A DNA stretch of 64,000 bases from Candidatus Magasanikiibacteriota bacterium (GCA_014729395.1 WJJZ01000002.1:673-64672), one strand, 5' to 3'. Shown: positions 1 through 20,597, counted from the first letter of the stretch. Notes: generated from the sequence alone by a model not told the origin. Numbers and translations: made by a program.

Positions 1-266
1 TCAAATTTTACAAGATAATCAACATGTTCTACTATTTCATTTCTAAGCTCATTGATATCTTTCTTTGTCGCCATAGTTGAATGAGTATCATAAATGTCTG
101 TATGAATATTTTCAATATCGTTTTTGAGTTCTGTTCTTAATTCATTGATGTCATCTTTTGTAGTCATTCTACTGTTTATGCCTGCGATATCGTCTTGAGT
201 AGCTCCATTATTTTTGATGAAACTAACCACTTCCCAGATATCTTTTATTGTAGGTTCATTAGTCAT
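1..266 (-). CDS. Coiled-coil repeat protein, paralog 1 (3' end cut off by the window edge)
   Basis: The minus-strand ATG is the complement of 264-266. It translates MTNEPTIKDIWEVVSFIKNNGATQDDIAG...DINELRNEIVEHVDYLVKF. This closely matches the N- and C-terminal blocks of the ORFs at 3594-4004 and 12332-12661. There is no stop before position 1. Confidence 0.6.
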   Translation of the reverse strand, partial: MTNEPTIKDIWEVVSFIKNNGATQDDIAGINSRMTTKDDINELRTELKNDIENIHTDIYDTHSTMATKKDINELRNEIVEHVDYLVKF

Positions 267-600
267 AAAACCATGTTATTAGTAAATAAATTATATTAAT
301 TATAATAACATAAGTCAAACAGAATTTAGTTAAAAAAAGATAAAATCGGTATAAAAAAATTATAAAATTTGGTCTGCTGTTGAACTTTGGACTCAATTGG
401 TTAACTCTTAAGAGTTAATTGTCAAAAGTTGAGTGTGAAGTTTGATGGCTAGAGCTATCTTGAACATTAAAATTGGAATTTAAAATATTGAATTTAGAAT
501 TTCGATTGAATTACAAATTTTTAAATTTATAAATTTAAAATTGATTCATAATTCGAAATTTGAAATTCAAAATTAAAACACGTACTTTCTTCCTCATTAT

Positions 601-720
601 TTTTTACTTGCGTATTTGTCATTCCCGCGAAGGCGGGAATCCAGTAAGCGGTATATGAGCCATGGATGACAATTTCCTGGATTCCCGATCAAGTCGGGAA
701 TGACATTTGAAAAAGTAAGA
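601..720. repeat. GC-rich REP/MITE-like palindromic element, copy 1
   Basis: Two perfect hairpins, ATTCCCGC-GAAG-GCGGGAAT and ATTCCCGA-TCAAG-TCGGGAAT, sit in inverted arms GTCATTCCCG...CGGGAATGAC. They are flanked by an imperfect outer inverted repeat ttactt.../...aagtaaga. The same 10-mers recur at 51138-51250. Confidence 0.7.
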
Positions 721-1010
721 AGTAGTGAGGAAGAAACAGGGGATTCTGCGCCAGCCAGCGCGGGACGGTAGATTGTTCAAGTGGTATTCCGACGGGGGTC
801 GGAAGAGCAATTTATTGACATAACCACGACTCCAACCCCTTCCCGCTTTAGCTCTAACAGTCTAAAAATATAGACGATGACGGAGCAGGGCTTAGGAAGA
901 TAAGGTTGGGGGAAATTGTATCCCCAGCAAACCAACGGCCGAGATATCCGTTTCGGCCAGAGACCAAAGGTCGGGATGGAAACCGACCGAACACAGAAAA
1001 GGATTGAGAC

Positions 1011-1853
1011 ATGAACAAGCACAACATAGAAGTGGTGTTCGAATACGGCAAGACGGTAGAGGGCGAGCAGAACATGCAGCCCAACACCATCTACATCGAC
1101 GGCTCCTTCCGGGGGCCGGCGATCCGGAACGACATCCGGACGTACAGCTTCGACCACCACGCGGGTTGCTCGCGGTTCGCCACCCTGGCGACCTGCGAGC
1201 AGGTGCTGCTCGCCATGGATCTCGGCCTGGACGTGTCGGGGATGACGGTCGTGATGAACGACCTCGATGCTGATGGCAGTCTCAGCCTGTGGCTCCTCCG
1301 CAACCCTAAGAAGTCGCAGACCCCCGAGATCCGCGCCATCGTCAAGGAGATCGGCTTCGTCGATGCGCACGGTCCCGTGCGTACCCCGGCCAAGCTCCAC
1401 AAGAGCCTGAGCCGCAACCCCCGCGTCCCGCAGACGATCGACATGCTCTGGGACGACCAGGGCAAGATCGACGCGTGGTACGAGAGGGGTGACGAGGCGC
1501 TCTCCGAGCCGTTCAGCTTCCCGCCCGCGCCGGCTTTCGGGCTGACGCAGGAGGGCGAGCTGGTGGAGCTCGAGAGCGCCGCCGACTTCGCCGAGGTCTA
1601 CGCCGCCGGCTGCGTCGCCGCCGTGATGGTACCCGAGGGCCCCGAGGGAACCAAGGGTTACACGATCGGCAAGCGCAGCGACTTCGTGAGCTACGACGTG
1701 CAGGCCTTCCTGGCCAGCATGAACGAGCTCGAGAAGGGCTGGGGCGGAGGGTCCACCATCGGTGGTGCCCCCCGTCTCGACGGTGGCAAGCGGTCGAGCC
1801 TGCCGGTGGAGACGGTCAAGTCCGTCTTCCTGGCGATCGCCCGCGGCGAGTAG
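1011..1853 (+). CDS. Hypothetical protein, 280 aa, GC-rich (contains FDHHAGC and DLDADGS motifs)
   Basis: An AAGGA sequence lies 6 nt upstream of the ATG. GC3 codon bias is high and uniform across the ORF. The full-length antisense ORF at 777..1865 is treated as a GC artefact. No confident family assignment could be made. A DHH-like tripeptide is present, but the order of motifs does not fit the DHH family. Confidence 0.55.
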   Translation: MNKHNIEVVFEYGKTVEGEQNMQPNTIYIDGSFRGPAIRNDIRTYSFDHHAGCSRFATLATCEQVLLAMDLGLDVSGMTVVMNDLDADGSLSLWLLRNPKKSQTPEIRAIVKEIGFVDAHGPVRTPAKLHKSLSRNPRVPQTIDMLWDDQGKIDAWYERGDEALSEPFSFPPAPAFGLTQEGELVELESAADFAEVYAAGCVAAVMVPEGPEGTKGYTIGKRSDFVSYDVQAFLASMNELEKGWGGGSTIGGAPRLDGGKRSSLPVETVKSVFLAIARGE

Positions 1854-2103
1854 CACAAGTCGCAATCACGCGACAAACCTCCCCAGCGTCACAGGGTACG
1901 CTGGAATAGGGAGGTTTACTAACCCTAAGCTAGTTGGCTAGAAAGGAGATAGTGTTATGGCTACACTACCAACTTTCAACTGGCAGTCCCGACCGTTTGG
2001 GACAAGGTGCTTCGCAGCCTTAAATGCGGCGGCAGACCCTACCCTTCGCGAGGGTAAGGCAGAGTCTGCGACGGAAGCCATCCCTCGCAAAAAAATTCAA
2101 ACG

Positions 2104-2484
2104 GCGTCTAACCCCAAAACAAAAGAGTAACCTGTGGGCGAGGGCGCAAGAGCTGATTTCTAGTGGAGTTCTTTCACATTAGCTCGAAACGAGTTGACCG
2201 CTCTATTCTGAGTAGGGTCAACAGCACTTGGGATAGGAAGTAGACGCACGCACATGCAACACTACTTCCTACCCGTCACATCTTACTTAAAGTTTAGGTG
2301 AGAGGTGATGGGGGAAAGGCTGAAAAAGCTTGAAAAGCTGGAAAGGCTTAAAAGGCTCGAGATTGGGTATTTGTGATTAGTGATTGAAGTTGTAATAGTT
2401 GTAAGAGTGGAAGATTAAGATTAAAACAGTAAATTGTAAGTAGTAACTAGTAATTAGCTTTTTGCTTGGTCTAGTTTAAAATTT
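2104..2484 (+). repeat. Direct repeat copy A
   Basis: Positions 2268-2484 are near-identical to 3290-3501. Upstream of that, conserved islands (CTAACCCCAA, GGGCGAGGGCGCAAGAGCTG, CTCTATTCTGA, GTTGACC, GGATAGGAAG...CTTCCTACCCGTCACATCTTACT) are separated by diverged spacers. Some stems carry compensatory changes (GGAAGTAG/CTACTTCC versus GGAAGAC/ATCTTCC). The repeat has three parts: a structured GC-rich segment, a micro-ORF and AT-rich iteron-like pseudo-repeats. Confidence 0.8.
2308..2376 (+). CDS. Conserved micro-ORF, 22 aa (MGERLKKLEKLERLKRLEIGYL), copy A
   Basis: GAGAGG lies 4 nt upstream of the ATG. The stop is TGA. An identical peptide is encoded at 3325-3393. The peptide has heptad-like K/L periodicity. 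Translation is not proven. Confidence 0.35.
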   Translation: MGERLKKLEKLERLKRLEIGYL

Positions 2485-2496
2485 ACAGATTTCTCT

Positions 2497-2582
2497 CTAT
2501 TAATAAACTTTGTCCAAAAAACAGAGTTTGGCAATAGAGAGAAATCTCGAACCGGTTTCTCCACCCCCGGTGGGTGGAGAAC
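2497..2582 (+). promoter_or_regulatory. Long inverted repeat plus GC hairpin directly upstream of the mCpol-like gene
   Basis: GATTTCTCTCTATT (2497-2510) pairs with AATAGAGAGAAATC (2535-2548). The loop itself contains aaactttg/cagagttt. This is followed by TCTCCACCC-ccggt-GGGTGGAGA at 2558-2580. Confidence 0.5.
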
Positions 2583-2630
2583 GCAAGCCGCCATAGGAGC
2601 GGACCGGTAAAGAATAAAATGAGGGCCGAC

Positions 2631-3080
2631 ATGCTATATCTAGCATTTGATGGCGATAACGTCGGCTCTCAACTCTCTCAGCTCATTGAGCTGGGCGAGG
2701 ATCGAGAGCTGGCGGCATACGCCGCCGGAGTGCAAGAAGAAATGTTCGAGACGGCGCGAGCTGCCGAGCGCATTGGGGCTACGGTCCTAATGTGTTCGGG
2801 GGACAGTTTGCTGTTCCGTCTCGAACATAAGAGTCAGGCGGAGCGTATCTTATATACGTTCCGCCATAGAAAGAAAAGGTTCGTCACCCATTCTGTGGGC
2901 GTGGGGCGGACCGTTCAGGAAGCCCACAAGAAATTGATGCATGCAAAGCTTGCCGGTAAAAACCGGGTGTGCTGGTATTACGAGCCAGCTCCTCTCGGGA
3001 GGCTTGTAATAGAGTCACTATTGCACCCGTTAGTGGCTCTAAAAAACTTTCACTTCAAAGGTTTTTTTCTTTGGAAGTGA
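2631..3080 (+). CDS. mCpol-like minimal palm-domain nucleotide cyclase (predicted), about 149 aa
   Basis: GAGGG lies 5 nt upstream of the ATG at 2631. LYLAFDGDNVG (strand 1, acidic pair) and LMCSGDSLLF (a hairpin equivalent to GGDD or GGDEF) are the hallmark motifs of RRM-like palm cyclases (Cas10 Palm, GGDEF, class III cyclases). The small size fits the minimal CRISPR polymerase family. Alternative starts at 2574 and 2619 are less likely. Confidence 0.6.
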   Translation: MLYLAFDGDNVGSQLSQLIELGEDRELAAYAAGVQEEMFETARAAERIGATVLMCSGDSLLFRLEHKSQAERILYTFRHRKKRFVTHSVGVGRTVQEAHKKLMHAKLAGKNRVCWYYEPAPLGRLVIESLLHPLVALKNFHFKGFFLWK

Positions 3081-3101
3081 AAGTTTCACCCACGTCAGAT
3101 G

Positions 3102-3501
3102 GCGCCTAACCCCAATAACATAACCACTTCTGGGGTGAGGGCGCAAGAGCTGCAAATTCTAAGCGAGATTCTCTCGTGGCAGCTCGAGACATGGTCGGCT
3201 TTACTCTATTCTGAAGCTAAAGTTGACCACACACCGTGAATCTATCCGGTTCACGGGCACTCGGATAGGAAGACAGCACATCTTCCTACCCGTCACATCT
3301 TACTGAGTTTATCAGTGGGAGGTGATGGGGGAAAGGCTGAAAAAGCTTGAAAAGCTGGAAAGGCTTAAAAGGCTCGAGATTGGGTATTTGTGATTAGTGA
3401 TTGAAGTTTTAATAGTTGTAAGAGTAGAAGATTAAGATTAAAACAGTAAATTGTAAGTAGTAATTAGCAATTAGCTTTTTGCTTGGTCTAGTTTAAAATT
3501 T
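3102..3501 (+). repeat. Direct repeat copy B
   Basis: See copy A. This copy contains the B-specific hairpin CCGTGAA-tctatcc-GGTTCACGG. Confidence 0.8.
3325..3393 (+). CDS. Conserved micro-ORF, 22 aa, copy B (peptide identical to copy A)
   Basis: GGGAGG lies 4 nt upstream of the ATG. The 69 nt are identical in both copies apart from their flanks. Confidence 0.35.
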   Translation: MGERLKKLEKLERLKRLEIGYL

Positions 3502-3593
3502 TGCTAATTTCTATTTACAAATTACCATTTACTGATTACTTTTTTGCTGAAGTCTGCCTGTCCGCCTCTGGCGGAATAGCCGAGAGCTGATTG

Positions 3594-4004
3594 CTAATTG
3601 ATCGGATTATTTTTCTTTATAACAAGATCCAGCTTTTTGTCAGTTCGGTCTTGTCTAAGAGAAAGAGTGTTATCGTTTTTTACCAGAAAATCAACATGTT
3701 CAGTTATTTCGAGTCTAAGTTCATTTAAATCCATTCTTGTAGCCATGGTATTATGAATTTCATCAAGTTCCCGATGAATTGACGCAATATCATCCTTGGT
3801 AGCCATATCACGACGAACGTCTGCAATATCAGTTTTAAGTTCACCCCTCAATTCATAAATGTCAGTCTTGAGTTCAGTTCTTAATTTGTCTATGTCAGTC
3901 TTGAGTTCAGTTTTGAGTTTACTAAAGTCATCTTTGGTAGATCCATTATCCTTGATAAAGTTAATGACCTCATAGACGTCTTTGATTGTAGGATCTTTTT
4001 TCAT
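3594..4004 (-). CDS. Coiled-coil repeat protein, paralog 2 (about 136 aa; repeats LKTELKTDIxxLR x3 and ATKDDI)
   Basis: The start is taken at MKKDPTIKDVYEV. The longer ORF-track start at 4055 translates AT-rich upstream DNA. An in-frame 33-bp tandem DNA repeat lies at 3850-3930. AT-rich composition contrasts with the GC-rich blocks on both sides. Confidence 0.7.
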   Translation of the reverse strand: MKKDPTIKDVYEVINFIKDNGSTKDDFSKLKTELKTDIDKLRTELKTDIYELRGELKTDIADVRRDMATKDDIASIHRELDEIHNTMATRMDLNELRLEITEHVDFLVKNDNTLSLRQDRTDKKLDLVIKKNNPIN

Positions 4005-4159
4005 AGTAATGTCACTTATTAAATAAATTATATAAATTATAATATCAAAAAGCAAATAAAATTATGATAAAAAAATTATTAAATTTATATAAACAAATTT
4101 TGAATCAATATTGAATTAGTAAATTTTAAATTAATAATTCAATCGAAATTCAAAATTTA

Positions 4160-4260
4160 AAATCAATCTAACCACCACGAATAACCACCACACACAAAGA
4201 GGGTTCTAGCTAGACCTCTTTGGGAGATATTTTTCTGTGGTGGTTAGATATCGACCAAAA
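4160..4260. repeat. Nested palindrome at the AT/GC junction
   Basis: Outer inverted repeat ATCTAACCACCAC (4166-4178) pairs with GTGGTGGTTAGAT (4238-4250). The inner hairpin CAAAGAGG-gttctagctaga-CCTCTTTG has a loop UUCUAGCUA that resembles the preQ1-I aptamer loop. Confidence 0.6.
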
Positions 4261-4265
4261 GGTCT

Positions 4266-4305
4266 AAAAAAGAGTCTTCTTGATCTGAGAAGGCTCTTTT
4301 TGTTT
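4266..4305 (+). terminator. Intrinsic terminator-like hairpin 20 nt before the GNAT RBS (possible attenuator)
   Basis: AAAAGAGTCTTCT-tgatctg-AGAAGGCTCTTTT is followed by TTTTTGTTT. The AAGGAGG RBS and the ATG at 4327 follow immediately. Confidence 0.55.
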
Positions 4306-4326
4306 AAAAAAAAGGAGGAAAAAAAA

Positions 4327-4743
4327 ATGACCGAGATTATTGACATGAACAGGTTGGCCCGTTTCGTATCTGGGCTGAAGCCATCGGCGCACGTCGCTAT
4401 TCTCTTCACTGGAGACCGACTGGCTTGCTGCGATGAAGCGGTGACTTTGCGAGTTGGGTGCGAGATTGTTGGCGTGGCCACGATTGCTCCCGAAGGGGAA
4501 GAGTATACGGGTCAGCCGACGATTGTGGCTCTATATATAGAGCCCGGGTATCGTCGACGCGGCCATGGCACTACCCTCATGAAGTCGGCGCTTGAGCGCT
4601 GCCGGGAACGTGGCTTTGAGACTGTCCGAGTTGATGTCATGTCCGACCATGTTATGAAAATCATCCGTAGTTTGCCGGCTGAACTGGCGACCATCTTGGA
4701 TGTCCATGATATGGGGGCCATGATGGACTCATTTCGAGGATAG
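4327..4743 (+). CDS. GNAT family N-acetyltransferase (138 aa)
   Basis: AAGGAGG RBS. The acetyl-CoA motif A, IEPGYRRRGHGTTLMKSALERCRERG, has the form Q/R-x-x-G-x-G/A. Confidence 0.8.
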   Translation: MTEIIDMNRLARFVSGLKPSAHVAILFTGDRLACCDEAVTLRVGCEIVGVATIAPEGEEYTGQPTIVALYIEPGYRRRGHGTTLMKSALERCRERGFETVRVDVMSDHVMKIIRSLPAELATILDVHDMGAMMDSFRG

Positions 4744-4845
4744 ATTATTTAAAAGGAGGATTCAAGGAGGAATCTTCCTCAGTTTTTAAAATATTTGAAG
4801 ATTGAGGAAGCATCACGAATGGGTCGTGATGCAAAAGGTTTTAAA

Positions 4846-4949
4846 AACCAAGGCCCGGTCTACCTGTGGTGGATGTCGCGTCGCTTGAATCAACAAGCGA
4901 TCCCGAAATTACTCGGGAGGAGCTACACTGGTTTTTGAAGGAGGAAGAG
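4846..4949 (+). promoter_or_regulatory. Conserved structured 5' leader element, type 1, copy 1
   Basis: AACCAAGGCCCGG...GTCGCTTG-aatcaa-CAAGCGAT, then CCCGA-aattac-TCGGG, then GAGGAGCTACACTGGTTTTT, then GAAGGAGG-N6-ATG. Also at 10027, 19850 and 21459. Confidence 0.7.
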
Positions 4950-5183
4950 ATGAAAAGAAAGATGGGCCTATGGCCCATGTGTATTTGCGGAGTAGAGCTC
5001 GCCGACGGGCACGAACTGTGTCCTGAGTGCGAGCAGGTGGAGGCCGACGGCCGCTGTTTGGGCTGCCGTCGGCCTGTCGAGGATGGACACCGAAGTCAGA
5101 TCGGGTTGTGCCCGGTCTGTACTGAATTGGTTCTTGACGGCGTGGAAGAGGCACGCCGCGAGACCATGTCTATCCCCGACTAA
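4950..5183 (+). CDS. Small zinc-ribbon protein (77 aa; CxC, CPEC, CLGC, CPVC)
   Basis: A GGAGG RBS lies directly after the type-1 leader. Four Cys pairs are present. The terminator hairpin T1 follows. Confidence 0.5.
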   Translation: MKRKMGLWPMCICGVELADGHELCPECEQVEADGRCLGCRRPVEDGHRSQIGLCPVCTELVLDGVEEARRETMSIPD

Positions 5184-5220
5184 AAACCGGTCATTCTAGG
5201 TGATCGCATACGTTCTTTCA

Positions 5221-5262
5221 ACACACAGGCACACATCCTAGACCCTGTGTGCCTCTACTTTT
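5221..5262 (+). terminator. Conserved-loop terminator hairpin T1 (GGCACACA-TCCTAGACCC-TGTGTGCC plus a T-rich tail)
   Basis: Member of a family of 5-6 hairpins. The loop TCCTAGACCCTG is invariant and the stems show compensatory changes. A conserved block TTCTGAAAGCG lies at 5285-5295. Confidence 0.65.
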
Positions 5263-5535
5263 AGAGATTGTAAATATTTATGATTTCTGAAAGCGTTTTG
5301 ATTTTGAAAAAATTGAAGCGTGTGATCGTTTTAAAAAAACCGTCTGACAAGGGCGGATGAAAATATAGAGAAAAGAGACCTTGGGCAGCCCTGCCCGGTT
5401 GGTTGTGTTACTAAACCTAAAAGTTATAGCGCACAGCAAGTCGATTTAGTTCGGCCGAGCAGGGTGGGTATGCCTCGACAGATGTCGGGGTAAGCGTTGC
5501 CGTAAGGCGCGCTACCGCTGCTTGAGGAGTCCAAG

Positions 5536-8500
5536 ATGACGAAGTCGAAAAAAAAGGGTTCCTGCAAGCCTTCGAGTGCGGGAATCAATGATTTGCCAAT
5601 CGTTGATTTTAAGGATGAGATCATGGGGAGTAGCGCCCCCTACATCATTGTCGAAGCCGAGACCGGCTCCGGCAAGTCGACTATGGTGCCCCAGTGGTTC
5701 CATGAGCTCGACATGTCGGTGCTCGTGACCGAGCCGTTGATTGAGACGGTAATCGGTACGAGCGAGTACGTGGCCCAGCTCATGGGCTGCGAGTTCGGCT
5801 CGACGGTCGGTTATCGTACGGGCAGTAGCCGGTGCGACAGCCGGGAGACTGATGTGCTTTTTTGCACGGACGGTCTTGCGCTCGTGCGCGAGTTGTCGGG
5901 ACACAATCGTTTCGACGTGCTCGTCATCGACGAGCTCCACGAGTGGAATACTAATCAGTCCACTCTGGAGGCCTGGGCGTGGAAGCATCTTCAGGCGGGC
6001 GATAGCCCGTTCCAAAAGATCGTGGTGCTGTCGGCCACTTTGAACTCGGACGAGCTCTCGCGCAAGCGGGGCAATGCTCCGGTGTTCAAGGTTCCCGGTC
6101 GACAGTTCCCGATCGAGGATCGGCGTGCCGGTTCGTCGATCGAGGCGGACGTGAAGTCGCTCGTCGCCGAGGGGCACGACGTCCTGGTCTTCCAGCCTGG
6201 GGCAAACGAGATCCGTGAGACCATCCAGACGCTCGAGCGTATGGAGGTCAATGCGGAGCTCATCCCGTTTTACGGGAAGCTCAGCCGGGAGGACAAGACC
6301 AGGGCGTACCGGTCGTACGGTCGTTCCAAGGTGGTGGTTTCGACCAACGCTTTGGAGACCGGCCGAACACTTGTGCCGTCACCCGGGCGCAAGCTCGCGG
6401 TCGTTGACTCCGGGCTCGAAAAGCGAGTGGAGCTCGACAATGATGGAATCGAGGGTTTGTACCTGGAGCCCATCGCCAAGGCTAAGGCCATGCAGCGTCG
6501 CGGTCGCACGGGTCGCGTTGGTGAGGGGATCTATATTGATCATTGTCCCTCCGCCGGCCGTCCGGCGTACCCCGTACCGGAAATTCTCCGGACGCGACTC
6601 GACCAGACCGTTTTGCGGTTGGCGTGTCATGGGTACGACGCGACCGAGCTTCCCTTCTTCCACGAGCTCGACATGAGCGTCATCGCGGAGGCCAAGCGGG
6701 CTCTGCAGGCGCTCGGAGCGATGCGGGAGGATGGAGACGTGACCAAGACGGGGCGTCTCATGTCCCGTCTGCCGGTCTCGGTCGGTCAGGCGCGGATGAT
6801 TATCGAGGCGGACAAGCGTGGTGTGGTGGACGATGTGATCACCATCGCCGCGATCTTGAACGTCAAGGGCATTTGTGACCGCACCGGAGCGTGGCGGGCG
6901 TACACCGTCGAGAAGCGTTCCGATGTTTTGGTCGAGCTGGACCTCTGGCAGGCCGCTCGTGGCAAGCGGAATCGCGAGCTGCGGGACATGGGGATCTTCG
7001 CCAAGGATTACCAACGAGCACGGCAGATCCGCCGCAAGCTCGTGGACGTCTTGCGACAGCATCGCGTGAAGCTGGGTTCGTCCGGCGATCGCGAAGAGAT
7101 CCTCAAGTCGGTTTGCGCCGGTATGGTCGACCACCTGTACAAGTTTTCTCATACAGACAGGATGGGGAACTGGTACGTAAATGGTGGGTCGTCCACTGCG
7201 CGGTTGCTTGGCAACCAGAGTGTGGTGGATGGCGGCCCGGACTGGCTGGTCGCGATTGGGTTCAATGTGCCGACCCGAAAGGGAGGCACACTCCCGATCG
7301 TCACGCAGGTGACGGCGGTTGAGCCCATGTGGCTCGCCGAGGTCGCTCCACAGCTGGTTGAGGTCAAAACCGGTCTCTCCCCCCGGTATGACCAGGAGAA
7401 GGACCTCGTGACTTCGGTCACCGAGATGTACTTCAACGGTCAGAAGGTGCGGGAAGAGAGGGTTGATGACCCGACTCATCCGGAGGCTGCGAGGCTTTTC
7501 GCCCAATATCTGGCAAGCCGTAACGATGTCGAGCCAATGTGTTCGAATTGTCGTCAGGCAAACCGGATGAAAGAGCTCAACATTCGGGCCGGCGAGGACA
7601 TCTTCCCGGTACCCGACATGGCGAGCTTCTACCAGGAGCGACTGAATGGTGCTCGTTCGATCCAAGAGATCGAGCCGGGTACCAGCCTCCGTTTGCCCAC
7701 CCTCGACGAGGAGCTCGTCAAGATGGTGATGGATGAAAATCCTGATACCATTCAACTCCTCGGAGAAGAGTTGACGGTGGAGTATCGGGCGCCATATTAT
7801 GGCCAGCCCAGAGCTCCGCGTGTGAAGCTCACGGATGAGCTCGTCAGCACGAATCGCTGGCTCGAGCTTCCGGACGAGGGAGTGTGGCTCCCGAGCGGTC
7901 GCTCAGTAGAGCTGGTGGTGTCCTTTGGGCACTACAATGAGCTCTCTGGGACCGACATCCCGAAGTTGAAGGTTGAGATGAGAGATTATCTCAACCGGAA
8001 GCAGTGGGATTCTTGGGTCAAGCCCGAGATCGAGATTCCGGATCTGTCGGCCGATGACGCCGTCGTCCCGTTTGTCACCAAGGTCTATGGGACCTGTGTT
8101 ACAACGGGTGACGAGCTCATGGCCTACGGTACAATAGCCGTGAACACGAGTCGCTGGTATGCAAGTGATCCGCTGTTCAAGGCCATGTGGTACCGCGATT
8201 TGATCGCGGCCCAGAACGCCGCCGACGCCTCCGCCGAGAAGCTCGTCGAGAAAAAAGATGAGCTGAAAGCGGCGAGGGCGCTCGAGCTGGCGAAGACCGA
8301 GGCTGAGGCCGCGCGCAAGGAGCTCCAAAATCTCAAGGGTCGTGAAGACTGGGAAGAGCTGGAGTACGACTTGCGGAGTCGAGTTAGCGACTTGCTCTAC
8401 CGCTCGTTGCCGCGCTCCATCGATGAACTTCGAGAGGATATTGAATCCACCAAGGCACTGATTGCCGAAGTGGAGAGTGCACTCGAGAAGTTCGAGAACG

Positions 8501-9507
8501 AGCGTGAGGCGGAAGAACAGCGCCTGCTCGAGGCCGAGGAGCGCGGAGAAATCCTGCGCGACTTCGAAGCCTGGCATCGCCGGGGCGGTATGACCGGCAA
8601 CGGAGACGGCTGGGTGATACGGCCGGACGGCAGCCTCCGCGACCGTGACAGTGATACAGTGCCACGCTACAAGCACGATGGCCAGTATCACTGGGACATG
8701 GTCAAGCCGGAGGAGCTGGCTCTCAGCTGGCGCTGCAGCACCAGGCGCGACGTCGACGGCACGAGCGACTTTAAAGTCGTGAAGGTGCCTGTCGACGGTG
8801 TGACGTCGGAGCAACTGCGCCGGGTGGAGGAGATCGAAGACGGTATCGGTGCAAGCCGTGGCGCTTTCGGCCTCCACGCCGAGATCACCCGCCGCAACGA
8901 GGAGCGTCTCGAGGCCTGCCGTGAGGCAGCTCTCAATGCTCGGGTGCGCGGTTCCCAGATCCTACGGAAGTTGCCGGAGACCTTCAGCTGGTTGAAGCTT
9001 GCCGGTGACGGCGTTCTCAACCTTGAGCACTATGTGGAGGACAGGAATGTCTTCCGCTACGTCAACTGGGCAGCAGAGTACGTGGGAGTCTGCGACAACC
9101 GCGACGCCTTTCTTCTCTTCGAGACAACCGCGGCCGATGGCAAGTTGCAGTTCGTCGTATATGAAAAATACGGCTCGAGCGACAACCTGGCTGTCCGCTG
9201 GCGGGAATTCACGGAAGAGGAGCTCGCTCAGCAGGCCGAGCATGAGACGCCCCAAGGCGACGGCCATTTCGTCGAGCGCTCCACCCGCCATTTCGCTTGC
9301 GATTGTGGTGGAACGACTCGGATAACCAAGTCCGAGTGGAAGCGCTACCGGCGAGGTGAGGTGCTGGAGCTCACCTGCACCCACTGCGGAGCTACCGGCA
9401 CTGTCTGCAAGGAAGCGGACGAAGAGCCGGAGGCGAAGCAGAACGGGAACGGCTCGAGCGGAGGCGGCGCCTCGATGGCCGATCTCATGGCCAAGTTCAA
9501 TCGCTGA
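5536..9507 (+). CDS. DEAH-box (HrpA/HrpB-like) ATP-dependent helicase with HA2 domain and long C-terminal extension, 1323 aa
   Basis: Walker A AETGSGKST, the DEAH box VIDELHEW, SATL, TNALETG, QRRGRTGR and an HA2-like block RLMSRLPVSVGQARMII...IAAILN are all present. The C-terminal roughly 600 aa has predicted coiled coil (residues about 890-1010) and a CxC...CxxC zinc knuckle near the end. It is not the DUF3418 tail found in E. coli HrpA. Confidence 0.85.
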   Translation: MTKSKKKGSCKPSSAGINDLPIVDFKDEIMGSSAPYIIVEAETGSGKSTMVPQWFHELDMSVLVTEPLIETVIGTSEYVAQLMGCEFGSTVGYRTGSSRCDSRETDVLFCTDGLALVRELSGHNRFDVLVIDELHEWNTNQSTLEAWAWKHLQAGDSPFQKIVVLSATLNSDELSRKRGNAPVFKVPGRQFPIEDRRAGSSIEADVKSLVAEGHDVLVFQPGANEIRETIQTLERMEVNAELIPFYGKLSREDKTRAYRSYGRSKVVVSTNALETGRTLVPSPGRKLAVVDSGLEKRVELDNDGIEGLYLEPIAKAKAMQRRGRTGRVGEGIYIDHCPSAGRPAYPVPEILRTRLDQTVLRLACHGYDATELPFFHELDMSVIAEAKRALQALGAMREDGDVTKTGRLMSRLPVSVGQARMIIEADKRGVVDDVITIAAILNVKGICDRTGAWRAYTVEKRSDVLVELDLWQAARGKRNRELRDMGIFAKDYQRARQIRRKLVDVLRQHRVKLGSSGDREEILKSVCAGMVDHLYKFSHTDRMGNWYVNGGSSTARLLGNQSVVDGGPDWLVAIGFNVPTRKGGTLPIVTQVTAVEPMWLAEVAPQLVEVKTGLSPRYDQEKDLVTSVTEMYFNGQKVREERVDDPTHPEAARLFAQYLASRNDVEPMCSNCRQANRMKELNIRAGEDIFPVPDMASFYQERLNGARSIQEIEPGTSLRLPTLDEELVKMVMDENPDTIQLLGEELTVEYRAPYYGQPRAPRVKLTDELVSTNRWLELPDEGVWLPSGRSVELVVSFGHYNELSGTDIPKLKVEMRDYLNRKQWDSWVKPEIEIPDLSADDAVVPFVTKVYGTCVTTGDELMAYGTIAVNTSRWYASDPLFKAMWYRDLIAAQNAADASAEKLVEKKDELKAARALELAKTEAEAARKELQNLKGREDWEELEYDLRSRVSDLLYRSLPRSIDELREDIESTKALIAEVESALEKFENEREAEEQRLLEAEERGEILRDFEAWHRRGGMTGNGDGWVIRPDGSLRDRDSDTVPRYKHDGQYHWDMVKPEELALSWRCSTRRDVDGTSDFKVVKVPVDGVTSEQLRRVEEIEDGIGASRGAFGLHAEITRRNEERLEACREAALNARVRGSQILRKLPETFSWLKLAGDGVLNLEHYVEDRNVFRYVNWAAEYVGVCDNRDAFLLFETTAADGKLQFVVYEKYGSSDNLAVRWREFTEEELAQQAEHETPQGDGHFVERSTRHFACDCGGTTRITKSEWKRYRRGEVLELTCTHCGATGTVCKEADEEPEAKQNGNGSSGGGASMADLMAKFNR

Positions 9508-9635
9508 CAATTCAACCGGCCTGACCACAAGAAAACAGGGCCGGATAAAAAATAATATGTTTTCTGCGGAAAAACCGGCGGCCGTCCCAATAGGGAATAG
9601 AGCCGGTTTACATATATGTTCTTTTTTGGTAATTT

Positions 9636-9665
9636 TGGGGACAGGACTGAACATCCTAGTCCCCA
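9636..9665 (+). terminator. Variant of the conserved-loop hairpin (TGGGGA...ACATCCTAG-TCCCCA), T6
   Basis: It shares ATCCTAG with the T1-T5 loop. It lies 130 nt downstream of the helicase stop. At 9574-9612, an AAACCGGC/GCCGGTTT hairpin and a T-run precede it. Confidence 0.35.
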
Positions 9666-9737
9666 CCCTTCACTACTTATTTAAAATTTAGATAAGTGTT
9701 GAAGGGAAATTGGTTCCCTTCAGCAGAGGGAGGTGTC

Positions 9738-10016
9738 ATGAAAAGAGAGATAGTTGTCGCGGACAGGGACTTTGAAGTGTACCGACCGGAGCGCCGGTAC
9801 TACCGCCTAGATCGTAGGCACTGGGATCTGGAGCCTGGTACCCGGGTGACCGTGAAGGTGTGGCGGAAAAAAGGTCGCTACAAGATTCTGAGTGCGGTCG
9901 TTGTTGAATTTTTTTACTGGTGTCAGTGTGGGGTTTGTGACCCCACCTATTTCAAGGCCGCTATGCTGAACCGCCATTTCGACGGTAAGCTGAAGCGAAA
10001 GGATACAGACTATTAG
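9738..10016 (+). CDS. Hypothetical small protein, 92 aa
   Basis: GGGAGG lies 5 nt upstream of the ATG. GC-rich. Contains CQCGVCD. Confidence 0.4.
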   Translation: MKREIVVADRDFEVYRPERRYYRLDRRHWDLEPGTRVTVKVWRKKGRYKILSAVVVEFFYWCQCGVCDPTYFKAAMLNRHFDGKLKRKDTDY

Positions 10017-10026
10017 AAAACAAAAA

Positions 10027-10157
10027 AACCAAGGCCCGACTTGCCTGTCTGCTTTACAAAGTGGTGAAGAGATTGGCAGGTGTCGTGTTGCCTGAATCAA
10101 CAGGCAAGCTTGGGATTTTCCCAGGTGGAGCTACACTGGTTTTGAAAGGGGTAAGAG
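10027..10157 (+). promoter_or_regulatory. Type-1 leader element, diverged copy 2
   Basis: The same architecture is kept with compensatory stems: TTGCCTG-aatcaa-CAGGCAA and TGGGA-ttt-TCCCA. GAGCTACACTGGTTTT is conserved. An RBS and the ATG at 10158 follow. Confidence 0.65.
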
Positions 10158-10640
10158 ATGAAGAAAATCACGGACGCTTGTAACGAGCAGAGCTCAGTGG
10201 TCATCCAGGTGGCCGGAGGGTACATGAAGTGGTACCCGGCAGATGAGCAGAGGAGAGTGGAGTTCTACCTCCAGGGAATCGAAATCGATCCCCGGGTTCA
10301 GGCGGTGGATTTGCTCCTTGCCATGAACCAAGACGATGACATGGTGTTATGTAGCATCAATTGTCCGTCATTGGTACTTCCAATGGAAGTGATCGAGGAG
10401 AACGAACTCCTCATCGCCGATGGTGCTGTCTGGTTCAGGCGACCGTCCAGTGAAGGTGGTGAGCGCTACCCCGAGCCACCATCGAGATTGCGGTACACGG
10501 TCAAGGCACCTGGGGGATTTTCTCCGTGGGGTACGACCAACTGCCTCGAAGAGGCGCAGAGAATCCAACAAAAAGCTCTTGAGGAGGGTGTTGAGGACAT
10601 CGGTATCCGGGAAAATTCGAGTGGCAAATATCTAGGGTAA
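10158..10640 (+). CDS. Hypothetical protein, 160 aa
   Basis: Preceded by the type-1 leader and followed by T2. GC-rich. Confidence 0.5.
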   Translation: MKKITDACNEQSSVVIQVAGGYMKWYPADEQRRVEFYLQGIEIDPRVQAVDLLLAMNQDDDMVLCSINCPSLVLPMEVIEENELLIADGAVWFRRPSSEGGERYPEPPSRLRYTVKAPGGFSPWGTTNCLEEAQRIQQKALEEGVEDIGIRENSSGKYLG

Positions 10641-10669
10641 TGAATGTCGTTAGAAAAATTTTTAACCTC

Positions 10670-10712
10670 CGGGCACACATCCTAGACCCTGTGTGTCCAT
10701 TCTTTCAAAGAT
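10670..10712 (+). terminator. Conserved-loop terminator hairpin T2
   Basis: GGCACACA-TCCTAGACCC-TGTGTGTCC plus TTCTTTC. A TTGAAAGCAC block follows at about 10731. Confidence 0.65.
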
Positions 10713-10863
10713 CATAATAATTTGTGGTTTTTGAAAGCACCGTCTACTTGTGTTAGGCGGTGCAAGAAGCTTTGTTAAAAATATCTTTGCAGCCTCTAAT
10801 TATTTGATAATTAGAATCTCTCTCCGCTGCAATCTATATTTTTGATAAAAGCAAAAAATAAAA

Positions 10864-10900
10864 TCCCGCTTTGGCTCTAGTCCACAGCGGGGTTTTGTTT
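10864..10900 (+). terminator. Intrinsic terminator at the right edge of GC island A
   Basis: CCCGCT...AGCGGG stem plus TTTTGTTTT. Composition switches to AT-rich immediately after. Confidence 0.5.
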
Positions 10901-10964: not shown

Positions 10965-12305
10965 ATGAGAGAAGATGTTACATTAAACAAATCAGCAGCA
11001 AGATTTAATTCTGATATTCCGGAAATTGATAATGACAGAGAAAACTATCTGCAGGAAGTAAAAAATAATAGGAAAATATTAATCAGAGATATGGCAGCTG
11101 ATGATGAACTTTCCGACATTAATCCGGACAAAATGCTAGCTAAACTTCAAACTGATTGGCTTGAGAAAATTAGCAAAGAACAAAAAGATTTGATAGCCGG
11201 TCATGTTGATTTGGATTTTATTGAAAAAAGCGTTTTTAGTTATGATTACGAAGAACTTGTTTTGCATGTTTTGCTTTTAAATCAACTGGCAAAGGAATTT
11301 TATATTATCAGACCGTTTTCATGGAAAAGTGAGGAACTTGGTTTGTTTGATGAAGAGCTTGAAGAATATAATGAAAAAAGAGAAGGGATTTCAAGTAAAT
11401 TTTATGAGATCAAAGAAATAGTATTGGCCAAAGCTTGTCAGCTGGCATCTTTTCAGGCCCCTGAATTTAGCTATGGTTTGGATGAGGATGGTGGTACTCC
11501 TATTTTATATTTTGATTTACCGGGTTATGGTCAGTTTAGTTTTCACATGCCAAATATTAACCAACCTTATAGATCTAATGAACATATTGCAAAACTCTAT
11601 AAAATTCTTGATATACCCAAGTATCATGGAGACTGGAAACAAAGAAATAAACGGCCTATATCTCGAATGACAACAGAAAAAGCCGAAGAAATAATTGCTG
11701 AAGGGGAACATATTGTGTCATTGGAAGATATTGAGCAGTATCTCAGTGAAAGAGAAGATATTAACCCCAAAAAAGCACACGATTTATATTTTAGGGCAAT
11801 GGCCCATCCGGATTTCCATAAAAATAAAGAGAAAATTGATGAATTACTTTTCAAACATGCGCCCACTGTTCCCGGAGCTTTGTCCCAAGCCTATCTAGAT
11901 GGTTTTGATTTGCCCTATAAGTATTATTCAAAAAAAATTAAGAAACGTGAACCATGGATGGATCATCTATATCCAACTTATCATGATATAATTTTTTATA
12001 TTGAAGAGTTAGATGCCTTGTTGGATTTTGCACAAAAAAATCAACCAAACGAAGAGTTAAAAGAGTCGACATTTTATGATCTTGAAGAATTGGAGCAACA
12101 AAAAACAAAAGTAGAGACTGATACGAATTTGGTGAAACAAAAATTAAACAGAATATTAAAACCGGCCTTACTTTTTTATCTGGAAGACGATAATCGTTAT
12201 GACGTCCCTCTGAGAAGAAAGATATACAACAAATTAGAAAAATTACTGGAAAGGTTTAATATGGAATTAGGCGATTACTTGACCGGGGATCAATTTGTCG
12301 GTTAA
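10965..12305 (+). CDS. Hypothetical acidic protein, 446 aa (AT-rich, host-like codon usage)
   Basis: Long uninterrupted ORF with no recognisable motifs. Confidence 0.6.
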   Translation: MREDVTLNKSAARFNSDIPEIDNDRENYLQEVKNNRKILIRDMAADDELSDINPDKMLAKLQTDWLEKISKEQKDLIAGHVDLDFIEKSVFSYDYEELVLHVLLLNQLAKEFYIIRPFSWKSEELGLFDEELEEYNEKREGISSKFYEIKEIVLAKACQLASFQAPEFSYGLDEDGGTPILYFDLPGYGQFSFHMPNINQPYRSNEHIAKLYKILDIPKYHGDWKQRNKRPISRMTTEKAEEIIAEGEHIVSLEDIEQYLSEREDINPKKAHDLYFRAMAHPDFHKNKEKIDELLFKHAPTVPGALSQAYLDGFDLPYKYYSKKIKKREPWMDHLYPTYHDIIFYIEELDALLDFAQKNQPNEELKESTFYDLEELEQQKTKVETDTNLVKQKLNRILKPALLFYLEDDNRYDVPLRRKIYNKLEKLLERFNMELGDYLTGDQFVG

Positions 12306-12331: not shown

Positions 12332-12661
12332 TTAGTTCAGCTTCAAATTATTTTTTCTAATAATCAAATCCAATTTTTTTTCAGTTTTGTCTTGTCTAAG
12401 AGCAAGAGCGGTATCATTTTTTACCAGAAAATCAACATGCTCAGTTATTTCAAGCCTAAGTTCATTTAAATCCCTTCTGGTAGCCATGGTATTGTGAATT
12501 TCATCAAGTTCTCGGTGAATTGACGCAATATCGTCTTTAGTAGCCATGTTCTTGATATCGTCTTTAGTAGCCATGTTTGCCAGGTCATCTTTGTTAGCGG
12601 CATTTTCACTCATAAATTGAATGATCTCATAGACGTCTTTGATTGTAGGATCTTTTTTCAT
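12332..12661 (-). CDS. Coiled-coil repeat protein, paralog 3 (about 109 aa; NMATKDDI repeats)
   Basis: N- and C-terminal blocks near-identical to paralog 2. An in-frame 27-bp tandem repeat lies at 12521-12575. The upstream promoter region is shared with the other copies. Confidence 0.7.
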   Translation of the reverse strand: MKKDPTIKDVYEIIQFMSENAANKDDLANMATKDDIKNMATKDDIASIHRELDEIHNTMATRRDLNELRLEITEHVDFLVKNDTALALRQDKTEKKLDLIIRKNNLKLN

Positions 12662-12744
12662 AATAAAATTATTTATCAAATAAATTATATTAATTATCAT
12701 ATCAAAAAGCAAATGAAGTTTTGATAAAAAAATTATAAAATTTA

Positions 12745-12787
12745 TGTGAGTAAAAAATTAAACAAACCCCATATAAGAGGTTTGTTT
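12745..12787 (-). terminator. recA intrinsic terminator (minus strand)
   Basis: AAACAAACC-ccatataaga-GGTTTGTTT, followed on the minus strand by a T-run. Confidence 0.6.
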
Positions 12788-12820: not shown

Positions 12821-13885
12821 TTATTTATCAACCGTTTCTTTTTCTCCAGGCTTACCCTTTTCCTCTTCAGGTGCTTCACCTCTTTCAACGGCTTCCCAAA
12901 TTTTCTTTTCAATTTTTTTCATCATTTTTGGGTGTTCTCTTAGAAATAGTTTTGCTTTTTCTCTACCAACGCCGAGTTTTTCTTCTCCAAAACTATATGT
13001 ATTACCCGATTTATTGACGACCTTGTGTTCAATTCCGGAATCAAGCAAATCACCTGATATGGAAATTCCTTCATTGTACATGATATCAAATACGGTTGTT
13101 CTAAATGGTGCAGCCACCTTGTTTTTTACCACTTTTACTTTTACGCGATTCCCAATTACCCGGTCACCTTGTTTTATTTGGGCAGAGCGACGGACTTCTA
13201 TCCTAACAGAAGAATAAAATTTCAGAGCATTACCACCGGTAGTGGTTTCGGGGTTGCCAAAAAACACCCCTATCTTATGTCTGGTTTGATTTATGAAGAC
13301 TACCGAAGTCTTGGTCTTACTGACAATGCCGGCCAGTTTTCGAAGAGCTTGACTCATAAGACGAGCTTGCAGGCCCATGTGAGAATCTCCCATCTCACCT
13401 TCGATTTCAGCCTTAGGGACAAGCGCAGCCACTGAATCTATCACGACCACATCCACAGCATTTGACCTAACCAGAGTTTCCAGGATTTCCAAGGCCTGTT
13501 CACCGGTGTCGGGTTGGGATATTAGCAAGTTATCTACATCCACACCGATTTTTCTGGCATAATCCGGATCAAGAGCATGCTCGGCATCAATAAAAGCGGC
13601 AATGCCATCTTTTTTTTGAACTTCTGCGATAATATGTTGGGCCAATGTGGTTTTACCACTGGATTCTGGGCCAAATACCTCAATAATTCTACCTCTTGGT
13701 ACACCTTTTACACCAAGGGCGATGTCAAGCGAGATTGAACCGGTAGAGACCGCTTCCACTTGCATGGCGCGGGCCTCGGAGAATTTCATAATTGAACCAT
13801 CACCGTATTTTTGTTTAATTTGACCAATGGCGGTTTCAGCCGCTTTAAATTTGGCTTTTTGTTCATCGGTTTGTTTTTTGGGCAT
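12821..13885 (-). CDS. recA: Recombinase RecA
   Basis: Walker [10 protein letters not shown] and canonical RecA blocks across 354 aa. Confidence 0.97.
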
Positions 13886-13955
13886 AGTGATCTTGAATTA
13901 ATGTATAATTTTTTATTATCTAAATTAGAGATTGGTGATTAGAGGTCAGAAATTA

Positions 13956-14348
13956 TTAGTTTCTAATTTTATTAATAAAGGAATTAAGTTTTTTCGTCAG
14001 CTTTTTGTACTCTTGATCAAGATTTTTAAATTCCTCCTCACTTGTATATTTATTACCAAATGCGACTGATAAGTGGCTGCGTGTTTCCATTATTTCACCT
14101 CTTGCAATGTAAAATACTCTGACTTTATCTTTATAAAAATAACGTCCATGAGCTTCGGCAATATTAGCTATTATGGAATTAGCTGACCTTGTTATTTGAC
14201 TTTTTAGGGAATATTTTTCAAATTCTGGAAAAGTAGCGGATAATTTATAAATTTTCATTAATAAATTATATCCTTCTTTCCAAATTTCCAACTCATGGAA
14301 TTCTTTGTACATTTTTTGTTTGTTAAATTGGCAATTATAATGGGTCAA
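13956..14348 (-). CDS. Four-helix-bundle protein (23S rRNA IVS-type, TIGR02436-like)
   Basis: LEIWKEGYNL...RSANSIIANIAEAHGR...ARGEIMETRSHL. Confidence 0.8.
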   Translation of the reverse strand: MTHYNCQFNKQKMYKEFHELEIWKEGYNLLMKIYKLSATFPEFEKYSLKSQITRSANSIIANIAEAHGRYFYKDKVRVFYIARGEIMETRSHLSVAFGNKYTSEEEFKNLDQEYKKLTKKLNSFINKIRN

Positions 14349-14451
14349 TCTCCAGTCTCAAATCTCTAATTTTTATTCTTCACTCTTTCTTTTTATTTTC
14401 AATCACTACAACTCTATCACAAACCACATAAAATTTCCCTAAAATTAATAT

Positions 14452-15251: not shown

Positions 15252-15323
15252 ATTTTATAATCCTAACGTTCATCGAACCTTGGCAACGAAATAATGACAG
15301 AATTAATAGATAAAAATTAACAA

Positions 15324-18752: not shown

Positions 18753-18800
18753 GACCCAAGCCACATTGTAAAATATGACTCGGGTCTGTCGAACTGGCTA

Positions 18801-19250: not shown

Positions 19251-19401
19251 ATAATAATACCATAAAAAACTTAATTTGTCAAGGATAGCTTTACAATTTA
19301 AATTCCTAGTTTAAATATAAGTGTTTAATCTTGCTTTACATATAAATTTAGCTAAATTCAGCTAAATTTCATTATTTTACAAAAAAACAGTAAAGCAGCT
19401 C

Positions 19402-19430: not shown

Positions 19431-19434
19431 TATA

Positions 19435-20581: not shown

Positions 20582-20597
20582 CAAAAAAGGAGAGGAC

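Follow-up and report, generated by a model that had tools for sequence, protein, structure and literature searches.

Genomic islands and defence-type hotspots are known by atypical GC content, atypical G+C at third codon positions (GC3) and an atypical oligonucleotide signature, by variable content beside a conserved backbone and by signs of amelioration; most genomic islands are AT-richer than their host. Here we describe a gene cluster which shares these features and reverses the last. It occupies positions ~600 to 10,900 of a 64,000-nt stretch, hereafter the window, of a chromosome of Candidatus Magasanikbacteria (Patescibacteria, or candidate phyla radiation, CPR; GCA_014729395.1, WJJZ01000002.1:673-64672). 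As in the known hotspots, the cargo is of conflict type (a minimal CRISPR polymerase or mCpol, nucleases/phosphoesterases, a helicase), and, by our reading of the ORFs, toxin-antitoxin genes stand at the equivalent site in relatives. The cluster differs from them in being GC-richer than its host, in carrying its foreign signal open reading frame (ORF) by ORF, and in having no integrase, tRNA or direct repeats at its edges and no complete known defence system in the window island. Our reading, to which we give a probability of roughly 70%, is that this is a horizontally acquired accessory-gene cluster with a putative nucleotide-signalling/RNA function, sitting in a variable region beside FtsK-HTH-RecA (HTH, helix-turn-helix), stocked gene by gene and now ameliorating.

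The closest described setting of an mCpol is Panoptes, an anti-phage system made of the mCpol OptS and the effector OptE (PMC12657218; PMC12657230). The mCpol of the island is likewise stand-alone and OptS-like from end to end. It matches PF18182 (E 2.4e-14) and NF033576 (52.6 bits, cut-off 40) and aligns over its full length with Panoptes OptS (9mnr, E 4e-5); the Asp of FDGD and that of SGDS are aligned to acidic residues of OptS, whose roles are described in PMC12657218, and both catalytic positions are kept. The candidate cyclic-nucleotide signalling enzyme named in the original prediction is therefore a genuine mCpol synthase domain. Its neighbours differ from those in Panoptes, being a DHH/DHHA1 enzyme and a DEAH helicase; no S-2TM-beta, CARF-2TM, SAVED-2TM or HEPN partner is adjacent and no cyclic-oligonucleotide-based anti-phage signalling system (CBASS) is nearby. 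Searches with Pfam and PADLOC found no OptE-type or CARF/SAVED-2TM effector among the island ORFs, and since the effector is absent the cluster is not a member of Panoptes. The mCpol is flanked by two non-coding repeats, R1 and R2, and by a coiled-coil gene (cc1) on the opposite strand.

The helicase, predicted earlier simply as a large one, is a 1,323-aa DEAH protein with the Pfam domains DEAD, Helicase_C, HA2_N and HA2_C and a match to the HrpA structure (PDB 6zww, E 7e-55). It has the RecA1/RecA2 motifs and the HA2 winged-helix and ratchet domains of the DEAH/RHA superfamily, and the GxGK(S/T), DE(x)HE and QRxGRxGR columns are invariant in 25 homologues. This RecA1-RecA2-WH-ratchet core is common to HrpA/HrpB (E. 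coli HrpA; the eukaryotic Prp22/DHX8/Prp43 group). Unlike them, the window protein has an unrelated C-terminal region of ~680 aa with a terminal Zn ribbon, and it falls below the equivalog cut-offs for HrpA/HrpB (TIGR01967, 215 against 722.75 bits; TIGR01970, 198.7 against 546.15), matching over residues ~12-650 only. Its family is also patchy, GC-elevated, found in variable modules and split into two ORFs in some relatives. The DHH/DHHA1 enzyme, p280, has the DHH motif and the two-domain DHH/DHHA1 fold. In comparison with the named phosphoesterases of this kind (NrnA, GdpP, Rv2837c/CnpB, TM1595, PAP phosphatases, RecJ) it is compact at 280 aa, occurs in contigs resembling mobile genetic elements (MGEs) and in CPR hotspots, and escapes the family models, no membership being detectable in Pfam, NCBIfam or PHROGs.

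The compositional island itself is genuine. Measured in 400-nt windows, GC is 0.23-0.27 up to ~600 and 0.49-0.69 beyond it, then 0.26-0.34 over ~3,400-4,400, 0.46-0.64 until ~10,600 and 0.30-0.35 thereafter. Maximum likelihood placed change points at 624 (0.26 to 0.58), 3385 (0.49 to 0.34), 4350 (0.30 to 0.57) and 10626 (0.52 to 0.33), all within ~300 nt of the four sharp steps originally predicted at 600, 3540, 4200 and 10,900. Mean GC over 600-10,900 is 0.530, ~11 standard deviations above the other 10.3-kb windows (0.370, standard deviation 0.014, maximum 0.394), and the rest of the window lies at 0.27-0.47 per kb. GC is thus clearly raised, but the "60%" by which the island had been described is reached by two genes alone, p280 (0.66) and the helicase (0.60).

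The island genes show GC3 values of 0.58-0.91, against 0.24-0.37 in 17 backbone genes including recA, rpoB and rpoC, which bears out the strong G/C preference at third positions noted before. The tetranucleotide correlation of the island with the backbone is 0.48-0.64, compared with 0.78-0.90 among backbone segments, so both profiles that had been proposed as a check set the island apart. Its best tetranucleotide correlation is with the island at a related locus, L001 (0.80), in part through the shared helicase. Five long antisense ORFs, another expected feature of the GC-rich blocks, were located at 777-1865 (362 aa), 6379-7755 (458 aa), 7903-8877 (324 aa), 8962-9666 (234 aa) and 5512-6177 (221 aa). 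The DNA between the genes of the island is only mildly raised in GC: the GC-rich ORFs stand one by one in AT-rich, host-like spacers with structured modules and promoter-like sites. A promoter scan found sigma70-like sites in the spacers before GC-rich ORFs at 473-500, 2482-2509 and 4111-4138, and ribosome-binding sites (RBSs) are visible in the sequence before these ORFs. Two other sources of the base composition were considered and rejected. Translational selection does not account for the high GC3, as rpoB and rpoC reach just 0.32-0.35. Adenine mutagenesis of the diversity-generating-retroelement type, suggested by an Avd-like IVP gene nearby, was ruled out by the lack of adenine depletion and by the fact that entire ORFs are affected.

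Substitutions at third codon positions, polarised by parsimony and given here as GC-to-AT : AT-to-GC, point in the same direction. The window helicase shows 49:8 (22:2 if two outgroups have to agree, 28:4 where the codon keeps its amino acid) and p280 shows 13:2, with 15:2 for the related p280 at locus L090; for p280 a rough correction for the parsimony bias, by our own estimate, still leaves an excess of GC-to-AT changes. From the counts of 28:4 and 13:2 both window genes are ameliorating, and together with GC3 and the tetranucleotide signature they uphold the earlier view that the GC-rich blocks are foreign-type DNA. The sister copy of the helicase at L001 gave 19:35 (7:7 with two outgroups, 14:25 at conserved codons) and has therefore evolved GC-ward, despite a host GC3 of 0.27. 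Elsewhere the counts were 55:13 at L005, 16:21 at L004 (GC3 0.89, host 0.38), and 14:16 and 14:21 in the Clostridiaceae helicases (GC3 0.27 against a background of ~0.13). A pure regression of transferred genes to the mean was rejected, since the helicase almost never lies below its host, the background GC3 of GC-rich hosts being estimated crudely.

The remainder of the window is ordinary chromosome, with recA, ftsK, rpoB/rpoC-sized genes, miaA, yebC and rmlD-like genes. The helicase, p280, cc0 and cc2 (coiled-coil genes at the borders of the island) each match a protein of a single Candidatus Magasanikbacteria metagenome-assembled genome at 100% identity (locus tags GF349_00740-00785). In relatives at 69-85% RecA identity (L100-L104) the FtsK-HTH-RecA order is conserved, the genes downstream of recA differ in each, and no cc gene, p446 (the ORFan between the island and recA) or island is found there. 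Because the upstream side is conserved while the downstream side differs every time, this lineage seems to have a variable site downstream of recA. The ORFs found at this site in L100-L104 include, by our reading, PIN-domain toxin-like and HicB-like proteins and an Xre-like regulator.

The helicase has hundreds of homologues in CPR. We surveyed 80 species-representative loci, 78 of which could be assessed for GC against their flanks. Helicase GC exceeded that of its own flanks in 75 of the 78, by up to 0.29, and GC3 behaved likewise. L001 has a 10-kb block of 0.53-0.69 GC between flanks of 0.30-0.40 and includes genes whose GC3 reaches 0.94-0.98; in L002, part of a 984-kb contig, ~6 kb stand at 0.44-0.58 with one dip to 0.38 between flanks of 0.25-0.38. 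The order large protein, TrmB-like regulator, GC-elevated genes, helicase recurs in at least 14 loci, and in 18 of 19 loci the helicase has a higher GC3 than the TrmB gene beside it. In the window, L001 and L032 the GC-rich module is directly preceded by a cc gene on the opposite strand. The content of related islands varies except for the helicase and the GNAT acetyltransferase, homologues of the latter standing beside homologous helicases in L001, L003, L007, L012, L049 and L094. Related genomes with the same GC blocks in native codon usage had been named as evidence against recent acquisition: blocks in similar synteny do exist, but their codon usage is foreign rather than native. Within the clade of the window, helicase GC3 (0.82, 0.75, 0.66, 0.67) does not track host GC3 (0.27, 0.35, 0.47, 0.59). 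The helicase tree, a crude neighbour-joining one like all our trees, mixes Actinobacteria, which hold the gene at native GC, with Clostridia, Melainabacteria and several CPR classes.

Some relatives of the helicase differ in gene structure. The closest are encoded by two ORFs (~645 and ~666 aa; L018 9992-11929, L009 8051-9997, L003 919-2862 and 2951-4951), while the window and L001 have one fused protein, and L099 encodes residues 981-1232 on their own (14631-15364), not far from a p280 homologue. The helicase is also present on seven IMG/VR contigs, which are probably cellular given their length of 95-430 kb and only mild GC elevation. A 5-7-kb episome carrying the helicase was considered and dropped, as the small helicase contigs are not circular and L003 has no terminal overlap.

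The history of p280 can be followed separately. With the p280 of L090 it shares 89% nucleotide identity, but only over window positions 1032-1831, which lie inside the ORF; the flanking DNA does not align. This confinement to one ORF, together with the uneven GC3 of the island, suggests that the genes arrived separately. The L090-type p280 forms a single-gene GC spike (0.64, GC3 0.89) in flanks of ~0.40 GC in four independent Joint Genome Institute (JGI) samples. A homologue of 61% identity occurs at a native GC3 of 0.94 in 59-kb contigs of uniform 63% GC (L095-L098, e.g. ena:ERZ27237618:k141_47565). These contigs are phage/MGE-like, with SNF2, Hc1, tRNA nucleotidyltransferase and MazG genes amid dozens of ORFans, and the 59-kb contig has entries in 38 data blocks of the collection. 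In L099 a p280 homologue adjoins resolvase, primase Zn-ribbon and RadC genes. We also observed that window p280 and the L090 gene (9361-10209) share 87% nucleotide and 86% amino-acid identity, a level of non-synonymous change unusually high for a conserved enzyme. Since amino-acid divergence approximates nucleotide divergence between these close copies, the comparison suggests that p280 may be under relaxed or diversifying selection. A two-gene unit of p280 and the small ORF downstream was excluded because the downstream ORFs are not homologous across contexts.

The island is divided by an AT-rich gap at ~3,385-4,350 which contains cc1, one of three coiled-coil genes. All three, cc0, cc1 and cc2, lie on the minus strand where they had been predicted, with proteins 53-56% mutually identical, and each has, as was also noted, its own conserved upstream stretch (279-371, 4016-4099 and 12673-12745; 79-90% identity). 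A strong sigma70-like promoter for cc0 lies at 318-290 on the minus strand. The three genes were said to lie exactly at the GC boundaries. This holds for cc1 only: cc0 ends 330-360 nt short of the left boundary, and cc2 lies 1.4-1.7 kb past the right one, without an adjoining GC block and with the AT-rich 446-aa gene p446 between. The cc1 cassette matches 12347-12765 through repeats D3 (87%) and D4 (82%) and at 90% over 4016-4088, and over 201 nt the cc1 and cc2 sequences agree at 87% of nucleotides. From this identity of 82-90% and the host-like composition of cc1, we take cc1 to be a probable recent copy of the cc2 cassette. The two-block shape would then be best explained as one pre-existing island into which the host cc2 cassette was recently duplicated. 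Repeated insertion beside a paralogous target, as originally proposed, is not needed: one recent copy inside one island suffices, and cc2 has no GC block. The left change point, 624, falls within a palindromic element that carries the hairpin GTCATTCCCGCGAAGGCGGGAATC and whose core recurs exactly at 51217-51244 on the other strand, making it a host repeat.

Two structured modules recur around small ORFs. The 5' module, ~105 nt, is present in four copies (4843-4949, 10024-10157, 19847-19951 and 21459-21548), each of which closes with the RBS and start codon of a different small ORF; it has an invariant core GGAGCTACACTGGT and two hairpins with compensatory changes in 5 of 21 pairs. Its exact pattern was not found in JGI metagenomes, IMG/VR or any fetched locus. 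Possibly it is a cis-regulatory RNA particular to the lineage, or else marks the boundary of a cassette. The 3' module follows four different ORF units (5228-5294, 10672-10738, 21362-21423 and ~23620-23690) with two conserved hairpins, the first with an 8-bp stem and an invariant 10-nt loop T(C/T)CTAGACCC and the second with a stem of ~16 bp; compensatory changes are seen in 8 of 24 pairs. The large genes are without this module. Conservation of the loop suggests that the 3' module is more than a generic terminator. Neither module is in Rfam, where searches at gathering and E-value thresholds gave nothing meaningful.

In bracketing unrelated small ORFs with repeated, structure-conserved elements the island resembles an integron cassette array. 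It differs in that no IntI-type integrase was found among the ORFs scanned, that the elements resemble a common 5' leader and a terminator more than attC sites, and that the large cargo genes are without them. The tandem cassette array of the original prediction survives in part, in these modules and in the ~400-nt repeats flanking mCpol. As a separate observation, the placing of R1 and R2 around mCpol is what Campbell-type integration of a circle with mCpol and one repeat copy would leave behind, and each repeat has a hairpin whose stem is kept while its loop differs.

We propose that the genes would have come from GC-rich donors at different times, either from mobile elements such as the 63%-GC p280 contig or from GC-rich genomes with the helicase family. 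Entry would have been by recombination without a dedicated integrase, candidates being Campbell-type or flank-mediated exchange through the repeated modules and the mCpol repeats, and would have been followed by amelioration toward the composition of the host. In many CPR genomes the helicase-centred module would turn over beside the TrmB-like regulator, which would explain why it looks recent, that is GC-elevated, nearly everywhere.

Several points weigh against this proposal. The island ORFs (Pfam, PHROGs and NCBIfam) and 10 further ORFs of the window include no integrase, transposase, conjugation or phage structural gene, no tRNA or tmRNA lies in the 64 kb, and no direct repeat pair brackets 600-10,900, so that the mechanism of transfer stays a proposed one. 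The helicase has no close donor, its nearest relatives (60-69% identity) all being in CPR-like contexts. The Clostridiaceae helicase clade is at equilibrium at its GC3 of 0.27 against ~0.13, and the recurring synteny with a near-universal helicase GC3 excess could reflect a vertically inherited module under a locus-specific GC pull. Parsimony overestimates GC-to-AT changes in GC-rich sequence, which weakens the test of direction, and the 80 loci were picked by similarity to a GC-rich query and may be enriched in GC-rich homologues. Our comparison covers the window from cc0 rightward, and relatives no closer than 69-85% RecA identity. The functional reading is taken from domain identities alone and stays putative, the mCpol having no partner effector and PADLOC finding no system. 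In collections of 50,697 phage and 72,556 plasmid records, megablast with the island as query returned nothing, and tblastn only canonical HrpA/HrpB at 25-30% identity.

The vertical alternative would make the island an old one, a semi-core CPR operon whose GC3 is held high by mRNA or codon selection or by GC-biased gene conversion. It draws on the gene order kept in at least 14 loci, on the 18 of 19 loci where the helicase exceeds TrmB, on the balanced Clostridiaceae counts (14:16 and 14:21), and on the failure of helicase GC3 to follow that of the host within the window clade. We nevertheless consider it rather unlikely, as the window helicase and p280 are moving to AT and are not stationary, the L001 copy has moved GC-ward beside genes of GC3 0.94-0.98, island intergenic DNA is only mildly raised, the inserted cc1 copy is fully host-like and the helicase tree mixes distant phyla with several CPR classes. 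To our knowledge, GC3 values as high as 0.94-0.98 are far beyond any effect of gene conversion in bacteria. If the island is instead imported, the question is whether it came as one piece, as a degraded prophage or the remnant of an integrative mobilisable or integrative conjugative element, inserted site-specifically by the cc gene, later split and joined by host repeats. The genes are contiguous and co-oriented, the cc gene stands just upstream on the opposite strand in three loci, and MGE-like contexts were found for p280 and for the C-terminal domain of the helicase, the helicase also being on seven IMG/VR contigs. Such an origin is unlikely all the same: no integrase, excisionase, replication, conjugation or virion gene, tRNA or bracketing direct repeat was found, GC3 varies over 0.58-0.91 in 10 kb, related islands share only helicase and GNAT, and the L090 homology is restricted to one ORF. 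The IMG/VR contigs, moreover, are probably cellular, and the curated phage and plasmid sets hold canonical HrpA only, at 25-28% identity.

Capture of ORF cassettes by a recombinase, in an integron-like or other array with the modules as recombination sites, would account for the four copies of each module around unrelated small ORFs, in the island and at 19.8-23.7 kb, for their compensatory changes (5/21 and 8/24 pairs) and one invariant loop, and for the direct repeats flanking mCpol. We regard it as very unlikely, because no integron integrase, tyrosine recombinase or serine recombinase was found among the ORFs scanned (part of those in the window), an RBS and start codon stand at the end of the 5' module and the 3' module is terminator-like, so that both can equally be read as shared untranslated regions of paralogous units, and the helicase, p280 and GNAT are not bounded by modules, which are not found elsewhere. 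The least probable of all is an assembly or binning chimera in which high-GC reads of another organism were joined into an AT-rich contig. The source is indeed a metagenome-assembled genome and the GC steps are sharp, but at least four joins would be needed, each in an intergenic spacer and each leaving ORFs, RBSs and promoter-like sites intact. Host-type DNA is interleaved (cc1, the 586-736 element, and modules that also occur at 19.8-23.7 kb), and the GC step recurs in independent assemblies, dozens showing the same architecture and four JGI samples the p280 spike; it is for these reasons that a chimera is so improbable.

The functional side of the import reading draws on what accompanies the helicase. 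In other genomes its companions include DHH-like proteins (the DHH motif is present, with no Pfam family), the MYG1 exonuclease and a DEDDh-like protein (by our reading, again with no Pfam family). As these make or destroy oligonucleotide signals or short RNAs, and an mCpol is present besides, the cluster suggests a module with an RNA helicase at its centre and a role in nucleotide-second-messenger/RNA conflict or surveillance. Judged from the domains, mCpol would make cyclic oligo- or dinucleotides, the DHH/DHHA1 enzyme would hydrolyse such nucleotides or short RNAs, the HrpA-like helicase would act on RNA or ribosome-bound RNA, and GNAT would modify a target. The original description as a defence or plasmid-derived island holds insofar as p280 is common to MGE-like contigs, but no complete known defence system is present, PADLOC giving no system in the island and only a weak mCpol match. 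Another link of the helicase module to cyclic-oligoadenylate biology is a protein of ~400 aa with an N-terminal P-loop and a C-terminal ring-nuclease-type Csx3 domain (PF09620, E 8e-6), encoded just upstream of the helicase in several CPR genomes (L060 5177-6391, L063 5251-6468, L071 8052-9290, L010 7249-8079).

The island is very probably horizontally acquired and ameliorating, and as such belongs to a well-known kind of gene-transfer hotspot. It is unusual in its GC excess instead of a deficit, its ORF-by-ORF mosaic, the family-wide, synteny-linked GC elevation of the helicase in CPR, and the effector-less mCpol. If it is merely an ordinary transfer hotspot its value is mainly one of annotation. 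It is also a clear and checkable example of an ultra-small, AT-rich CPR bacterium acquiring high-GC genes and domesticating them, and a module GC-elevated at a syntenic site in dozens of CPR genomes is a testable handle on donors and turnover rate. Candidates for new biology are the effector-less mCpol, a DHH/DHHA1 family invisible to models and common to mobile elements, a distinct HrpA-like helicase subfamily, and two structured intergenic RNA/DNA motifs absent from Rfam. A wider proposal, which we put forward tentatively and hold to be doubtful, is that Patescibacteria have a hotspot by the TrmB-like regulator, often with a small coiled-coil gene, which is ever restocked with GC-rich helicase-centred genes and houses an undescribed conflict or RNA-surveillance system. 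If so, the companions (DHH/DHHA1, MYG1, AAA-Csx3, DEDDh, mCpol) would handle oligonucleotide signals or short RNAs, and the lasting GC excess would be the footprint of one-way gene flow into AT-rich episymbionts. The donors would be GC-rich, possibly the host organisms of the episymbionts or the mobile elements of those hosts, and the 5' and 3' modules would serve locally as scaffolds on which incoming ORFs are captured or expressed.

Table 1. Positions and properties of the features of the island and its borders, in window coordinates.
Feature	Position	Strand	GC3	Properties
cc0	1-266	-	0.24	Small coiled-coil protein, AT-rich; clipped by the window edge; full protein 122 aa, locus tag GF349_00740
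Conserved upstream (promoter) region of cc0	279-371			Repeat families D6, D7, D13; blastn 79% identity to 4016-4099
Palindromic element	586-736			~150 nt, resembling a miniature inverted-repeat transposable element, at left GC boundary; inverted repeat I2, 42-nt arms
p280	1011-1853	+	0.91	DHH/DHHA1-family phosphoesterase, 280 aa; GC 0.66, most GC-rich island gene
R1	2097-2484			Left ~400-nt non-coding direct repeat; D1 (228 nt, 93%), D15, D20; AT-rich tail with promoter-like site 2482-2509
mCpol	2574-3080	+	0.58	Orphan minimal CRISPR polymerase, OptS-like; likely start ATG 2619 or 2631
R2	3095-3501			Right copy of the direct repeat beside mCpol; repeat search and blastn
cc1 cassette	3594-4108	-	0.31	Gene 3594-4004 and conserved upstream region; GC 0.24-0.34
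GNAT acetyltransferase	4327-4743	+	0.59	PF00583, E 4e-11; RBS AGGAGG upstream
Cassette A	4843-5294	+	0.64	5' module 4843-4949; 77-aa Zn-ribbon ORF 4950-5183 (weak DZR match; GC3 of this ORF); 3' module 5228-5294
DEAH/RHA helicase	5536-9507	+	0.75	1,323 aa; HrpA-like core at residues ~10-640; C-terminal extension ends in Zn ribbon
p106	9696-10016	+	0.61	Small ORF
Cassette B	10024-10738	+	0.63	5' module 10024-10157; 160-aa ORF (p160) 10158-10640 (GC3 of this ORF); 3' module 10672-10738
p446	10965-12305	+	0.27	AT-rich ORFan of host-like composition
cc2 cassette	12332-12765	-		Gene 12332-12661 and conserved upstream region; directly downstream of recA; locus tag GF349_00785
recA	12821-13885	-		Backbone gene next to cc2

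Among the smaller features, Cassette B forms the right end of the GC-rich DNA (change point 10626). No family match was found for p106 or p446 in Pfam, PHROGs, PADLOC or NCBIfam, and p446 has no homologue in any fetched locus; p160 and the 77-aa Zn-ribbon ORF likewise carry no annotation. On the other side of recA lies the 23S-rRNA-IVP/Avd-like gene mentioned above, encoding a four-helix bundle (13956-14348) and lying between inverted repeats of 23 nt (13922-13944 and 14350-14372). It is missing from the HTH-recA interval of L101, where the gap is ~175 nt, and for this reason it looks like a small inserted cassette; a homologue adjoins the cc gene in L001.

A second cassette-like region extends over 18,800-24,100, just past a TrmB-like regulator (17985-18752), and has no ORF longer than 190 aa. 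It encodes small Cys-rich/Zn-ribbon ORFs (20213-20581, 20598-20876 and 22404-22892) and a 39-aa hydrophobic peptide at 19953. GC3 in this region is 0.32-0.56, between that of the island and that of the backbone, and the small ORFs at 19.8-23.7 kb are possibly older, more ameliorated cargo.

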